Positions 18,492 to 62,056 of a DNA stretch of 64,000 bases are shown in pieces. Made by a program: the position numbers and the translations under genes. Origin of the DNA: Planctomycetota bacterium (GTDB taxonomy: Bacteria > Planctomycetota > UBA8108 > SXIK01); NCBI GenBank assembly GCA_965223845.1, contig CBDCXR010000004.1, forward strand, positions 480,001 to 544,000, in the 5' to 3' direction. Position 1 is the stretch's first letter; each line of letters starts with the position of its first letter. Below the pieces are notes generated by a model. The model did not search any database, was not told where the DNA came from, and was given only the letters and a program-made list of their open reading frames with translations.

Positions 18492-18960
18492 TTTGGATCC
18501 CGTCTCTCTCGCTTCGTTCGCTAAGGTTCGGCTGGGAAGTGCTTCGAGGCGAGAAACGGCTCCATGGCGCTCGGATTGGCCGCGGCAAACCTAGGCAATC
18601 TCCGCGATTGTCGACTTGACGCGGCCGAGCCGAGCGTGAACGCGGCGTGTTCTCGGCCGAAGGGGTCTTCAGCGGGCGGTCCTACTCCAAACGAGCACTT
18701 TGCCCCGAAATACTCTGCTCCGAAACACTCTCCACGCTCGCGATTATACCACTACGGGAAGGTGCGCGGCGGCGAAATCAAAACGCGTACCCGTGTGTCG
18801 AAGTCGCGAAAGAACTTGCTTCACGCCCGCCGAACGCTCTCCGTTTCGGCCGCGCCCGAAGACCCTGGCGAGCGCGGCGCCGCGTGAAGATGATAGATGC
18901 GGCGGCGACTCGCGCGAGCGCGCGAGGCCGACCGTTACTCGGTGCCGGTGCGTGCCATTC

Positions 18961-20313
18961 ATGTTTCGCCGTTCAGAATTATTCCGTCGGTTCGCGGCTA
19001 ACGCAAAGCTCGGCGCGTTCGCGTCGTGCGTTCTCGTTGCTTGCGCGGGTGCGCGGGAACGGCCCGTTCTGATCGAGTTCGACGTGGTCACCGCTTCCAG
19101 TTCAACGGACGCGGACCTCGACGACTCGGACGAAAACGAGGTCGAGGTGGCTGCGGAGAGAGCGCGAGTGCGACTTTACTTACGCGGGCCCTTCTGTCGA
19201 GTCGAAGCGAGCGTTCGGAGCTCGGCCAGCGCGTCCTCGGGCGGTGCGGCGCCCGCGGCGGTGGCGATCTACGACGATGAGACCAGGGTCGTGTGGGAAG
19301 CTCGTCGCGGGCGAGAATTCGAGCGGCGCGGCTACGACGTGCTCGACTACGACGCGGCCACGCGAAGGCGGCGCGGTCGGATCGATCTCTACTCGCTGGC
19401 GATCGAGCGGCGTGGCGAGTGGGAAGGCACCTGGTCGGATCTCAACGGCTCCGGGCAGTCGCGCGAGATCGATCGGGCTCGGTTCGGCGGACGTCCGGCG
19501 CGCGTGGTTCGCCTCGCGGTCGAGCCCGGAGTCTATTGGGACGTCACGCTCGCCGCCGGCGACGTGGCCCCGGTCGACCCGGCGTTCGCGACGCCGAAGA
19601 TCCTGAGCGGTGTGTTCGGCGTCGCGCCCGGGCGAGCGGGCCGACTCGCGACGGCGCTCCGAGAGCTCCCGGTCGCCGTCGACGGCTACGTCTTGGGGGA
19701 CGACGGCATCGAGTCGGCGTTCGCCGCGACCCTCTTCGATGTCCGACCCGCTGCGCCGGCATCCGACTCCCTCTGGCCGGACGACGCTACACTCGCGCGC
19801 CGCGAGGAACTCGATCGCCGTCTCTCCTCGACGGATGTGCTCCTCGATGCGGTGTCGCGTCCGGACGCTCTGTCCACGCCGGTGACACTCAGCGAGCTGT
19901 GCCTCCGCATCGCGGCGCGGATCGAAATCGACGACGTGACGCGGGTCGTCGATCTCGTCGCCGGCGCGGAGCACGAATCCGAACGCGTCGAGCTCGCCCG
20001 CGCGCTCCTCCGCCGATTCCCGCGCCGGGCTTGGGTGGCCCTGCGGCCGAGTCTCGACTCGCCTCGGATCGAGCTGGCCGCGGGACTAGTCGAGGCCCTC
20101 ATCGCCGAGCGCCATCCGGCCGCACGCGCAAGTCTTCTTCGCGTTCTCCGCCAGCGCGACCGCTGGGCGTCCGATGTGCCACCGGAGGAGATCGAGCGCT
20201 GGGCACTCGGCCATCTCCGCGTCCTGAGTGGCATTCCTCTTGCACGTCTTCTCGAGCAGCTCCCCAGCGGGGCAGACGCCGAGCTCGAGACGTGGCTCGC
20301 ATCCGAGGAGTGA
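18961..20313 (+). CDS. Hypothetical probable lipoprotein with a C-terminal helical/HEAT-like region
   Basis: Long ORF with coding-like codon usage. Candidate lipobox LVAC near the ATG at 18961. Start uncertain. Confidence 0.6.
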   Translation: MFRRSELFRRFAANAKLGAFASCVLVACAGARERPVLIEFDVVTASSSTDADLDDSDENEVEVAAERARVRLYLRGPFCRVEASVRSSASASSGGAAPAAVAIYDDETRVVWEARRGREFERRGYDVLDYDAATRRRRGRIDLYSLAIERRGEWEGTWSDLNGSGQSREIDRARFGGRPARVVRLAVEPGVYWDVTLAAGDVAPVDPAFATPKILSGVFGVAPGRAGRLATALRELPVAVDGYVLGDDGIESAFAATLFDVRPAAPASDSLWPDDATLARREELDRRLSSTDVLLDAVSRPDALSTPVTLSELCLRIAARIEIDDVTRVVDLVAGAEHESERVELARALLRRFPRRAWVALRPSLDSPRIELAAGLVEALIAERHPAARASLLRVLRQRDRWASDVPPEEIERWALGHLRVLSGIPLARLLEQLPSGADAELETWLASEE

Positions 20314-59169: not shown

Positions 59170-60414
59170 ATGAATCTCTCCCGACGCCAATTCCTGAGCG
59201 CGACGGCGCTCGCGGGTCTCACGCCCGTCCCGCGCGTGCTCCTCGAAGCCGCACTCCGGCCGCGGGCGAACGACGAGGACGCGACGACACTCGTCGTCCT
59301 CCAGCTCTCGGGTGGGAACGACGCGCTGAACACCGTGATCCCGGGTGAGGATCCGATCTACCGGCGCGAACGGCCGACGCTCGCCGTGGGCGAGGAGCGC
59401 GTGCTCTCGCTCGCGCGTGGAGCTTTCGACCCGGCGGGCGTGACTCTCTCGGGCGCCGCCCAAGCGGAACACATCGGATTCCATCCGGAGATGAAAGCGC
59501 TCTGGGAGCTCTACGGAGAAGGACGCGTCGCGGTCGTGCAGGGAGTCGGCTACCCGAATCCGAGCCGATCGCACTTTCGCTCGATGGACATCTGGCACAC
59601 CGCGCGTCCCGACGTCGAAGATACGGAGAGCGGCTGGCTCGGGCGCACGATCGACCGCCACTCGGGGGCGATGTCCGCCGTCGACATCGGTCACGCCGCG
59701 CTGCCGCTCGCGCTTCGCGGGGAAACGGAGGTCCCGAGTCTGCAGAATCTCGACTGGCTCGACGAGCTCGCGTCACCCGAGGGTCGACGCGTTCGCAGTC
59801 GGCTGCGCGCGCTCCACGCGGCCGGACGAACCGGGCCCGCTGAGCGCGTGCGTCGGCTGGCCGTATCGACCTTCGCATCGCTCGATCGTCTCGTCGAGCT
59901 GCGCAACCGGCCCGTGCCTGTCGAGTACCCCGATTCCCGTCTCGCCGACCGATTGAAGTGGGCGGCGCAACTCATCTCGGGTCACTTCCCCGCGCGCGTT
60001 CTCTACCTCTCCCTCGGCGGGTTCGACACCCACGCGCAACAGCGCGAGCACCACGAGCGTTTGCTCCGCGACCTCTCTGGTTCCGTCGCCGCGTTCTTTC
60101 GCCACCTCGAGGCGCAGAGCGAGGAGAAGCGAGTGACCGTGCTCGTCTTCAGCGAGTTCGGCCGGCGTGTGCGCGAGAACGGCAGCCGGGGGACAGACCA
60201 CGGCGTCGCGGCGCCGCTCTTTCTGATCTCGGGCAAGGTCCGAGGAGGGGTGTACGGACCGCACCCGCGACTCGACGACCTCGACGACGGCGACCTCCGG
60301 TTCCACACGGACTTTCGCCGGATTTACGCGACGCTCCTCGACCGCTGGCTCGGGGTGGGGGACTCGAAGACGCTTCTCGGGGGCGAGTTCGCTCCGCTCG
60401 ACGTGTACGCGTAG
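59170..60414 (+). CDS. DUF1501 family protein with a Tat signal
   Basis: SRRQFL Tat motif, LSGGNDALNT, VGYPNPSRSHFRSMDIW, GGFDTH, SEFGRR..ENGS.GTDHG, DFRRIYAT. Confidence 0.93.
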   Translation: MNLSRRQFLSATALAGLTPVPRVLLEAALRPRANDEDATTLVVLQLSGGNDALNTVIPGEDPIYRRERPTLAVGEERVLSLARGAFDPAGVTLSGAAQAEHIGFHPEMKALWELYGEGRVAVVQGVGYPNPSRSHFRSMDIWHTARPDVEDTESGWLGRTIDRHSGAMSAVDIGHAALPLALRGETEVPSLQNLDWLDELASPEGRRVRSRLRALHAAGRTGPAERVRRLAVSTFASLDRLVELRNRPVPVEYPDSRLADRLKWAAQLISGHFPARVLYLSLGGFDTHAQQREHHERLLRDLSGSVAAFFRHLEAQSEEKRVTVLVFSEFGRRVRENGSRGTDHGVAAPLFLISGKVRGGVYGPHPRLDDLDDGDLRFHTDFRRIYATLLDRWLGVGDSKTLLGGEFAPLDVYA

Positions 60415-60645
60415 AGATCGGCGTGTCGACTCGACTCGAATCCCGGGTCCGGGTGATGTCTGCCCTCGCGGAGAGGCCGCGGACCGCGCACTCTCGTGTC
60501 GCTCCGAGGGGCCAGGGGCGCCGCGCGGGTCGCGGCGGAGGCCGGCTCGGCCCGAGCGCGAGCTCAAAGTGTCAGATTCTTGGGCGATTGGCATCTACCC
60601 CCGGTGGCGACGCCGCCTAAGTCGTTAAAATCGAATGGTTTAGGT

Positions 60646-60661
60646 TGGCACGCGCGTTGCT
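60646..60661 (+). promoter_or_regulatory. Sigma54 (RpoN) -24/-12 promoter with an upstream AT-rich IHF-like element
   Basis: TGGCAC-GCGCG-TTGCT matches the consensus exactly. TAAGTCGTTAAAATCGAATGGTTTA lies at 60618-60642. Confidence 0.8.
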
Positions 60662-60671
60662 CTACAATCCA

Positions 60672-60788
60672 GTGAGACCCAAAACCCTAACCCAACCCTT
60701 CCTCATGATTCCTCCTCCGAGGAACCTTCCTCTTCCGAGGGCGGGGGCCGGTGGCGCAAGCCACCCGCCTTCGCCCTTCGTGCCTTTT
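60672..60788 (+). ncRNA. Putative sigma54-dependent small RNA with C/U-rich anti-SD-like motifs
   Basis: Begins ~12 nt after the -12 box. Three TTCCTC motifs, hairpin TTCCTC-CTCC-GAGGAA, long GCAA-capped stem at 60737-60778, then TTTT. No credible + strand gene before the convergent gene ending at 60827. Confidence 0.55.
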
Positions 60789-60826
60789 AGGGGGGCCGGG
60801 TTTCTCGCGCGGTGACCCCTCGCGCC

Positions 60827-62056
60827 TCACTCCGCGAGCACTTTGCGGATGAGTCCCGACGGGAAGAACCCGGGATGACCGCGCCACCGAATCGTGCCCG
60901 CGCGATCGATCACGACGAGTCCCGGCAGGCTGTTCGCGAGATACGCGTCCCACACTCGATCCTCCGGGACAAACGCGACGTCCATGAACTCGAATCCCGT
61001 CTTCTCGATGTAGAGCTCCGGGCTCTCGGTGCTCTTCGGGTCGTTGGGATCGATGACGCCGAGCCACGCGACGCCCTCGTCGCCCCAGGTCGCGATCAGC
61101 CGGCGAAGGTTGGGCGCCTCTTTCGAGCAGTTCGTGCACCACGTGGCGACGAAGACGAGAATGCGGACTTCGCCGTCGAGTGAGCGGATGCCGGTCGAGT
61201 CGACGACTCCGTTCAGCCACTTCGCGGCGCGGAGCGGAGTGTACGGGCGACCGACGATCGAGAGCTGGCGAAGGTATTTTTGCGCGCGCTTCACGTCGGC
61301 GGTGCGATCGGGAAAGTCGCGAATGACTCGCGCGTAAGTGCGCCGCGCGGCCGGGATCTGATCGAGCCCGGACTGAACGATGCCGACGCGAAGAAGCGAA
61401 CGCGAGCGCGCGGGGTCCGCCGGATACTCATCGAACGCTCGCGCGTACTGAGCGAGCGCTTCGTTCTGTTTTCCGAGCATCAGCAGCGTCGATCCCGTCA
61501 TGTAGGTCGCGGACGCGGCTTTCGGGGCGCGCGGGTGCTCCTTCGTCACGGCGCGGAAGGTCGCGAGTGCGGTCTCGAGCCGCTCGATCCCTGTCGCTTC
61601 CGACACCGGCTTCTTCCGCAGATTCTGCCCCTGCAGATACTGCGTTTGACCGACTTCGAATCGGAGCTCAGCGCGCACGTCGCCGATCGGATTCTTCGCG
61701 AGACCGTCCGCGAGCACGGCGAGTGCTTCGTCGTATTGATACTGTTTTCGCAGGCTGCGGACTCGCTCGACGACGGCCTCGGCAGAGCGGAGACCCGGTC
61801 CGGAGGACGCGCCGCCGCCATCGGTCGCGGGCGAGGATGGCGATTCGTTCTGCTTCGTCGCGTCGCCGTCGCCCTTCGTCGAGGCGTCGCTCGCCACCGG
61901 CGTCGTAATCGCGTCCACCGCGGTCGTCGGATTCGCATCCGGGGCCTTCTTCTCCGGCGGCGCGCCCGAGTCTCCGGGCTCTCCGGAGCAAGCGGGAAGT
62001 GCGAGCGCGACGACGAGGAGAACGAGGGCGGGGATGACGGCGGCGGCGGAGCGCAT
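60827..62056 (-). CDS. Lipoprotein with TPR repeats (CpoB/BamD-like) fused to a TlpA-like thioredoxin domain
   Basis: Lipobox LPAC, disordered linker, TPR helices (ATYMTG...EALAQY...EYP), ATWCTNC CxxC and the cis-Pro segment SLPGLVVIDRAG. Confidence 0.85.
   Translation of the reverse strand: MRSAAAVIPALVLLVVALALPACSGEPGDSGAPPEKKAPDANPTTAVDAITTPVASDASTKGDGDATKQNESPSSPATDGGGASSGPGLRSAEAVVERVRSLRKQYQYDEALAVLADGLAKNPIGDVRAELRFEVGQTQYLQGQNLRKKPVSEATGIERLETALATFRAVTKEHPRAPKAASATYMTGSTLLMLGKQNEALAQYARAFDEYPADPARSRSLLRVGIVQSGLDQIPAARRTYARVIRDFPDRTADVKRAQKYLRQLSIVGRPYTPLRAAKWLNGVVDSTGIRSLDGEVRILVFVATWCTNCSKEAPNLRRLIATWGDEGVAWLGVIDPNDPKSTESPELYIEKTGFEFMDVAFVPEDRVWDAYLANSLPGLVVIDRAGTIRWRGHPGFFPSGLIRKVLAE

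Follow-up and report, generated by a model that had tools for sequence, protein, structure and literature searches.

A putative new family of sigma-54-dependent small RNAs in one order of Planctomycetota

The stretch of DNA analyzed here (hereafter the window) is 64 kb long and comes from a Planctomycetota bacterium, GCA_965223845.1, with a 7.93-Mb genome that has 65% G+C and is 91.7% complete. An intergenic space at 60415-60826 of this window, flanked by convergent genes, had been singled out in a previous sequence-only reading for a consensus sigma-54 promoter that might drive a novel small RNA (sRNA) repressing translation. We put at roughly 55% the probability of our explanation as a whole, in which 60566-60795 is a free-standing gene for a ~115-nt small non-coding RNA of a new family confined to one order, together with the mode of action proposed below. 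That the locus is a sigma-54-dependent sRNA gene, taken by itself, appears very probable from the sequence comparisons described below. Since the promoter, enhancer, 5' end, and hairpin are conserved, the neighboring genes are variable, and there is neither a conserved open reading frame (ORF) nor a match in Rfam, we propose that the locus belongs to a new sRNA family whose members are free-standing and depend on an enhancer. The elements on which the first proposal was built, namely the promoter, the leader, the TTCCTC motifs, the stem, the TTTT, and the convergent flanks, are all present at the positions given for them.

Conservation of the promoter and predicted RNA within one order

The promoter at 60646-60661 on the forward strand is an exact match to the sigma-54 consensus, consisting of a -24 element TGGCAC, a 5-nt spacer, and a -12 element TTGCT, where ten bases separate GG (-24) from GC (-12). 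The pattern TGGCACNNNNNTTGCW has a single match in the window, compared to a mean of 0.01 in shuffles (one match in 100 shuffles). TGGCAC-N5-TTGCW occurs only at 60646-60661 in the 64 kb, and the looser TGGCA[CT]-N5-TTGC[AT] has 5 sites in the whole 7.93-Mb genome, both strands included. Two copies of rpoN, the absence of which would have counted against the original proposal, are present in the genome (Sigma54_DBD matches of 199 and 191 bits), and no sigma-70-like promoter was found within 60350-60900. The promoter is present in 44 of the 45 copies compared, a set that excludes three metagenome rows appearing to duplicate genome copies but still has other near-duplicates, so that this and the other 45-copy counts come from related rows and overstate independence. 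In these copies, TTGC lies 11-16 nt 5' of a conserved GAGACC (13 nt in 28 of the 44), and because of this spacing we predict that transcription starts about 2 nt 5' of GAGACC, near 60672, which is 2 nt before the 14-mer GAGACCCAAAACCC. A second strict -24/-12 match in the window, TGGCAT-N5-TTGCA at 20229-20244 (+), falls in the 3' part of a 537-codon ORF (18700-20313) and may be an internal promoter or due to chance.

We then asked how far this unit extends beyond the window. A BLAST search with 201 nt of the locus against 40 relatives revealed a 74%-identical stretch in one genome (G003) that spans exactly from the promoter to the hairpin, and, in several further genomes, brief stretches matching the A/C leader almost perfectly. 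This G-poor leader, at 60677-60698, had been treated as a mere spacer and is actually the most conserved part of the RNA. Within a comparison set of 59 genomes of the class (21 of the order and 38 others), the exact 14-mer GAGACCCAAAACCC was found in 18 of the 21 genomes of the order, with no hits for the reversed control, and only once outside the order, by chance. On inspection, 21 of the 23 14-mer hits were preceded by the promoter at a fixed distance and followed by C/A-rich sequence, a long G+C hairpin, and a tail of pyrimidines, the other two being chance matches. A covariance model (R1), built from an alignment (A2) of the family f2, detected the RNA in 20 of the 21 genomes of the order, with one to four copies each, the only exception being an 80%-complete genome (G002). 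It also added six sibling copies with variant 5' ends, such as GAGACCCAAGACCC and GAGACCCGACACCC; all six have a dyad and promoter of their own. Further R1 hits were set aside, three as plain gene terminators, one as doubtful, and one as unrelated. No convincing member was detected by R1 in the other 38 genomes of the class, where there were two weak hits (17-18 bits), one (G039) that on inspection has no promoter and another (G032) that matches the hairpin part of the model alone. These findings agree with the original proposal of a sigma-54 promoter that drives a free-standing RNA of ~115 nt, non-coding and with its start near 60672, since the promoter, its spacing, the 5' end, and the hairpin are conserved in 20 of 21 genomes and in varied neighborhoods.

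Wider searches point to the same restricted distribution. When GTDB was scanned, using one genome per species and a 19-nt degenerate form, there were 70 matches, 20 with a promoter and 50 without. The 20 promoter-bearing matches are all in metagenome-assembled genomes, 18 of them titled Planctomycetota, Planctomycetia, or Planctomycetes and two "uncultured bacterium". A promoter-plus-start pattern run on 401 Planctomycetota genomes hit nine genomes of the order and eight among the ~380 outside it, the latter being ordinary promoters or chance matches devoid of family features. Neither the GTDB-wide motif scan nor the ~380 further Planctomycetota genomes thus yielded a member outside the order. 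A scan of metagenomes gave 73 hits, 22 bearing a promoter (20 of them distinct, ten of the window's own subtype) and 51 without. Rfam 15, a search of which had been proposed as a check, has at gathering score no match anywhere in the window, including to Qrr, GlmY/GlmZ, RsaE/RoxS, and CrcZ. With E values of up to 10, all that the region 59500-62000 returned were microRNA and P26 hits on the hairpin that do not exceed chance, the best sub-threshold hit being mir-483 with 24 bits, against a gathering score of 60, and E = 0.21.

Sibling copies, which the sequence-only reading suggested looking for, exist in some other genomes of the order (four in G005 and two each in G014, G016, and G017), whereas the window's genome has the single copy. 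In this genome, BLAST with the 201 nt returned the locus alone below E = 1, the promoter-plus-seed pattern had one hit, and the 14-mer with up to 2 mismatches had 13 forward and 21 reverse hits, compared to 12 and 9 for the control. The best extra 14-mer match, at C4:2616624-2616637 (13 of 14 positions, followed by further ACCC-like repeats), was rejected because it has neither a sigma-54 promoter nor the hairpin. It forms the spacer of a sigma-70-like promoter (TTGACA / CACAAT) upstream of an NfeD/ClpP-like gene, and we read it as chance or a remnant.

The genes around the RNA vary between families, as seen by comparing the window, G003, genus g5, G001, G005, and G007. In the window, the RNA is preceded by a DUF1800/DUF1501 gene pair (+), the DUF1501 gene stopping at 60414, and followed by a convergent gene encoding a TPR and AhpC/TSA-type redoxin protein (60827-62056, -), with its stop at 60827. 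In G003, a TPR-redoxin gene, the sRNA, and a lamin-tail-domain gene follow each other on a common strand. In the marine genus g5, the sRNA lies between an RlmI-like methyltransferase gene and a convergent gene of no assigned function, while the copies in G001, G005, and G007 have yet other neighbors. Because the contexts differ in this way among families, the hairpin would not be merely a neighbor's terminator and the unit would not be a leader. The redoxin gene adjoins the sRNA in both genera of the window's family (at L128:4316-5455 in G003), in opposite relative orientations, from which we surmise that a local inversion kept both together.

Two alternatives that need no sRNA gene can be weighed against these contexts. 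In the first, a chance promoter match would happen to precede the terminator of the minus-strand redoxin gene, and the hairpin does lie 48 nt past the stop of that gene. However, the whole unit occurs in 20 of 21 genomes of the order next to other neighbors, the redoxin gene of G003 is upstream of the sRNA on the same strand, and the hairpin read on the minus strand is followed by GGAAGAGGAAGG rather than by a pyrimidine tail. The hairpin therefore travels with the RNA and not with the minus-strand gene, and this explanation, which the sequence-only reading had itself raised as a way to be wrong, is already contradicted by the comparative data and hardly credible. In the second, the transcript would regulate a downstream gene in cis, as its leader or attenuator, or would encode a small protein, for which one could invoke the ATG at 60705 that opens a frame of 36 codons and the lamin-tail-domain gene found downstream on the same strand in G003. 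Yet the unit is followed by a convergent gene in both the window and genus g5, contexts vary between families, and the unit closes with a strong hairpin. The ORF, whose translation had likewise been named as an objection, is not conserved. In fact, no ORF is, as starts, frames, and lengths vary and 3 of the 26 copies have none at all. We consider this second alternative highly improbable. The unit is free-standing and non-coding, has its own predicted promoter and terminator, and is conserved independently of its neighbors, as befits an sRNA gene.

Control region and architecture of the predicted RNA

Alignment of the 260 nt upstream across copies delineated three conserved blocks, i.e., a dyad, an A/T box, and the promoter. 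The first block, which had escaped the initial reading and is added here, is a putative enhancer (upstream activating sequence) at 60566-60593 (+), composed of a dyad of the type TGTCAG-N5-CTGGCA (60570-60586) followed by TTGGCA, and can be aligned across three families and the sibling copies. In the window, the left half of the dyad (60570-60575) is intact and the right half (60581-60586) degenerate, as it is in the closest relative, G003. A dyad with no more than 2 mismatches is found in 40 of the 45 copies, 26 of which have it 124-129 nt upstream of the RNA's GAGACC, and the best copies read TGTC-N9-GACA. The dyad lies ~75-100 nt upstream of the promoter (in the alignments, ~95 nt from the -24 element), which is in line with the distance of activator sites, which lie ~80-150 bp from the promoter.

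Between the enhancer and the promoter is an A/T-rich box at 60616-60642 (+). In relatives, it contains the motif GACTTAKGAC, present with up to 2 mismatches in 35 of the 45 copies and inverted in the window at 60616-60625. The G+C content of 60615-60639 drops to 40% compared to 65% for the genome. The IHF-like element originally described here holds as an A/T-rich stretch, but as a match to the consensus WATCARNNNNTTR it is imperfect, the sole match between enhancer and promoter having 2 mismatches (at 60629). We therefore regard the A/T box as a candidate DNA-bending (IHF-like) site on the basis of its composition and position.

The predicted sRNA of ~115 nt extends from 60672 to 60788 (+), its start being placed from the -12 element and its end from the hairpin and pyrimidine-rich tail. 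A look for RNA sequencing runs containing the stretch returned four entries, all of them DNA contigs from a single study. The fold of 60672-60790 has an energy of -46.7 kcal/mol, compared to -31.65 ± 3.41 kcal/mol in 200 shuffles, none of which was as good (z = -4.41). The RNA opens with a G-poor single-stranded 5' end at 60674-60698 (+), in which the near-invariant GAGACCCAAAACCC is followed by more (A)CCC repeats, so that the 5' third consists of a nearly invariant block of 14 nt and such repeats. The first 30 nt of the 26 genome copies contain 1-3 G and 12-16 C, with 3-7 runs of three or more C (C3+) separated by A-rich spacers. This ACCC periodicity is retained in variant siblings of different sequence. 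The 5' end is the likeliest functional end of the RNA, as a putative seed or protein-binding platform.

Downstream of the 5' end, the window has TTCCTC at 60699-60704, 60709-60714, and 60727-60732. These three motifs, to which the sequence-only reading had attached importance, have not been kept in that form across copies, in which CCUC/CUCC recurs instead, 0-6 times per copy, with one occurrence usually paired with GGAG. The second TTCCTC in the window builds TTCCTC-CTCC-GAGGAA and forms a small hairpin, SL1, at 60709-60724 (+), in which CCUC is paired with GAGG around a CUCC loop in the minimum-free-energy fold. An equivalent of SL1, with a CCUC(C) 5' arm facing (G)GAGG, is present in the window's subtype and in g5 and missing from G012, G014, G017, G007, and G005. 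The C/U-rich linker that follows at 60725-60736 (+) carries the third TTCCTC; all copies have a C-rich single strand here, of variable sequence, before the long hairpin.

This long G+C-rich hairpin, at 60737-60779 (+), comprises ~19 pairs capped by a GCAA loop at 60756-60759 and presumably serves as an intrinsic terminator and stabilizer. Covariation had been put forward as a check, and the hairpin does covary, both in family f2 and in the window's subtype. In family f2 (12 sequences), both-sided changes occur in 9 of 18 pairs, the paired cells amount to 98.6% (41-55% in slid controls), and the score was not reached by any of 500 shuffles. The window's subtype, represented by 11 sequences of which the window is one, has both-sided changes in 10 of its 20 predicted pairs. 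For these counts we used the sub-family alignments A2 and A4, since the MAFFT alignment A1, which covers all 20 first copies, aligned the middle of the RNA too poorly for structure counts. Closing helices between a CCC run and the 3' G-run appear in many single folds, yet are invariant throughout.

The sequence just described could also act as DNA. Four template-strand G3 tracts after the start might form a quadruplex or i-motif that modulates sigma-54 transcription, the RNA being without function in trans, which would be in keeping with the C3+ runs early in every copy (3-7) and with the spacing of 2-4 nt between the tracts of the window. It would leave a conserved enhancer and promoter driving nothing else, and neither the conserved covarying hairpin nor the multi-copy siblings in varied contexts would be explained, which makes a purely DNA-level role very improbable compared to an sRNA gene.

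The unit ends with a pyrimidine-rich tail finishing in UUUU (TTTT at 60785-60788) and then a G-run, together 60780-60795 (+). The layout is the same in every copy, i.e., hairpin, C/U-rich tail of 10-17 nt, and GGG, and in g5 genomes sequence conservation ends directly after the tail and G-run. The same ending, with a tail in ...UUUCAUCC or ...CUUUCU and then GGG, also follows an unrelated protein gene in three g5 genomes (G006:C209, G008:C37, and G010:C107; loci L206-L208), and for this reason we read it as a local terminator style. Transcription units in the order seem to end with a G+C hairpin, a C/U-rich tail, and GGG, without a classical U-run.

Possible modes of action and the search for an activator

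How might such an RNA work? In the mechanism that we propose, an enhancer-binding protein, one of ~30 encoded in the genome, would bind the dyad and activate the gene upon a signal. The RNA would then need no Hfq to act in trans: G-rich stretches of mRNAs, particularly Shine-Dalgarno regions, would pair with its CCUC motifs and its unpaired, C-rich 5' end, and, as with RsaE/RoxS, the outcome would be reduced translation or stability. Such C-rich base-pairing is our tentative choice, given slightly less than even odds. It would be feasible because the genome uses Shine-Dalgarno sequences: its 16S rRNA ends in CCUCCUUUCU, GGAG/GAGG peaks at -12/-11 before start codons, and a Shine-Dalgarno-like 4-mer precedes 33% of first starts compared to 12% of internal controls. 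Matches to the Hfq, CsrA, and ProQ families were not found in the 91.7%-complete genome. According to PMC6158497, RsaE/RoxS of Firmicutes probably have no need of Hfq, and their repeated unpaired C-rich motifs are believed to recognize G-rich or Shine-Dalgarno sites by pairing. The RNA described here resembles them in its 3-7 C3+ runs and CCUC motifs in unpaired stretches and in the lack of a detectable Hfq. It differs in having no homology to them, a sigma-54 rather than sigma-A promoter, and an ACCC motif with A-rich spacers at the very 5' end. By this analogy, we infer that chaperone-independent pairing of the RsaE/RoxS type would be the best-fitting model.

Several results weigh against pairing. 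Duplex energies between the 5' 34 nt and 6932 start regions reached -38.0 at best, compared to -35.9, -34.9, and -38.5 for three shuffles. Complementary 9-mers/10-mers at -40 to +15 numbered 14/3 for the real sequence, 21/2 for the reversed one, and 21.1/4.3 on average for shuffles, while the 11-nt seed complement occurred across the order at the level of the reversed control. In many copies, moreover, pairing with GGAG sequesters one CCUC motif in a hairpin, and a 14-mer that is invariant yet lacks a long complementary site would fit binding of a protein no less than pairing. These target tests are weak ones, since they involved one genome, crude gene starts, and C-rich shuffles. The strongest single duplexes, with energies at shuffle level overall, involved an ECF sigma factor gene, in its leader, and a dockerin-like secreted protein. 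The start regions of four neighboring genes gave pairing no better than -23 kcal/mol. Four extra sites that were inspected (in G002, G016, G009, and G012) proved not to be sRNAs. The translational repressor pairing with Shine-Dalgarno sites that was first envisioned has thus received no support above controls in these searches and stays a hypothesis.

Because the target searches were negative, another possibility stays alive, namely that the RNA is a decoy or sponge whose 3-5 spaced (A)CCC units titrate an RNA-binding protein, either KH-type or another C-binding protein, ribosomal protein S1, or Rho. The ACCC periodicity that survives in siblings of differing sequence would suit this role, as would a near-invariant 14-mer for which the order offers no long complement, and the lack of enrichment of complementary sites in both duplex and k-mer tests. 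Rho loading sites are C-rich and G-poor, and there is precedent for decoys among the best-known sigma-54-dependent sRNAs in CrcZ, which acts on Hfq/Crc. Another of these, GlmY, works as a decoy of RapZ according to PMC4152352 and PMC7073468. Against a sponge, Hfq, CsrA, and ProQ were not found in the genome, and the negative target searches in its favor are themselves weak tests. Known sponges also usually have more repeats. On balance, we hold titration of a protein to be rather unlikely, and C-rich pairing remains our working model of action.

As for the activator, the genome has 36 Sigma54_activat matches, 30 of them above 100 bits. Very long open frames of 1600-2035 aa, an unusual size for enhancer-binding proteins, harbor many of these ~30 activator domains. 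None of the copies of the sRNA examined has an activator gene beside it. One operon drew attention, at C4:7737917-7740217, in which the gene of an NtrC-like activator is joined to that of a histidine kinase, soluble and only 273 aa long, and a dyad-like palindrome, TGTCAGAATGGCTGGCA, overlaps the start of the kinase gene (C4:7738745). We rejected it as the cognate activator after a scan of 17 loci, the genome's own among them, in which 14 of the 16 orthologous loci in other genomes have no dyad-like match, the remaining two being a 2-mismatch match at a similar position in G013 and a match inside the gene in G009. Orthologs of the NtrC-like activator are 49-74% identical (57-74% across most of the class and 49-53% in family f3) and are also present in families of the class that lack the sRNA, with 57-63% identity, so that its occurrence was dismissed as evidence.

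When the dyad form AAAGTGTCAG (1 mismatch) was required together with a -24/-12 element within 220 nt, only two sites were found in the window's genome, the sRNA locus and one doubtful site at C4:711957. The latter (C4:711957-712090) is a AAAGTGTCA-type motif with TGGCAC-N5-TTGCC 114 nt downstream, and could belong to the regulon of the same activator. Such a result would suit a regulon of very few genes, like that of LuxO-Qrr. One may therefore imagine a dedicated activator-to-sRNA switch, in which one enhancer-binding protein has the sRNA genes (one to four siblings) as its main or only targets. Its effector would be a chaperone-independent 5' ACCC array that either zips onto G-tract-rich (quadruplex-prone) mRNA leaders or titrates a C-binding protein such as Rho. 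This picture is a speculative one, and unlikely to be right in all its parts.

Relation to known sRNAs and biological meaning

The control region closely parallels, by analogy, that of the glmY/glmZ promoters, which are its closest analog. In PMC3045617, the GlrR consensus at glmY/glmZ is given as TGTCN10GACA, and IHF is required at glmY. GlmY/GlmZ of Enterobacteriaceae, which depend on GlrR/QseF and IHF, have the same set of parts as here: an sRNA gene, a sigma-54 promoter, upstream dyad sites as for an activator of the response-regulator type, and, in between, a bending-protein site, for which the A/T box is the candidate here. The dyads have a one-base difference in half-site spacing (TGTCN10GACA for GlrR vs. 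TGTC-N9-GACA here), and there are three GlrR sites compared to the one evident dyad here. Other differences are the lack of an Rfam match, another RNA architecture, and the absence of an adjacent activator gene. A further RpoN-dependent sRNA, CJnc230 of Campylobacter jejuni, acts post-transcriptionally, as reported in PMC11187230, and appears unrelated in sequence, phylum, and regulon (flagella).

Setting those systems aside, we also compared the RNA with Qrr. The Qrr sRNAs of Vibrionaceae are ~100 nt long, are controlled by sigma-54 and LuxO, come as one to five siblings with an invariant stretch, and need Hfq. The RNA described here is similar in size, in its sigma-54 promoter, and in having sibling copies (one to four) that share a conserved stretch, here at the 5' end. 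It is different in that no Hfq was found, there is no sequence or Rfam match, the phylum is another one, and the invariant part is a C-rich 5' end. On sequence grounds, the sRNA is set apart from the Qrr, GlmY/Z, RsaE/RoxS, and CrcZ families. We found no paper on an sRNA of Planctomycetota in the open literature, subscription journals being outside this coverage. The kind of regulator, an sRNA dependent on sigma-54 and an activator, is known, while the family, the phylum, the ACCC-repeat 5' end, and the control region are new.

Sigma-54-dependent sRNAs such as Qrr, GlmY, and CrcZ stand at the output of major signaling pathways and, to our knowledge, almost all of them are from Proteobacteria. 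A complete conserved control region combined with a sharp effector end therefore offers a handle on a signaling circuit in an uncultured lineage. The dyad could be used to fish out the activator and the 14-nt 5' end to fish out targets or a binding protein, while the level of the RNA in metatranscriptomes is a potential read-out of the signal. The presence of an ACCC-repeat 5' end in a genome in which Hfq, CsrA, and ProQ were not found bears on how sRNAs may act without classical chaperones. Should the dedicated switch prove true, it would be the first regulatory RNA circuit to be defined in this phylum.

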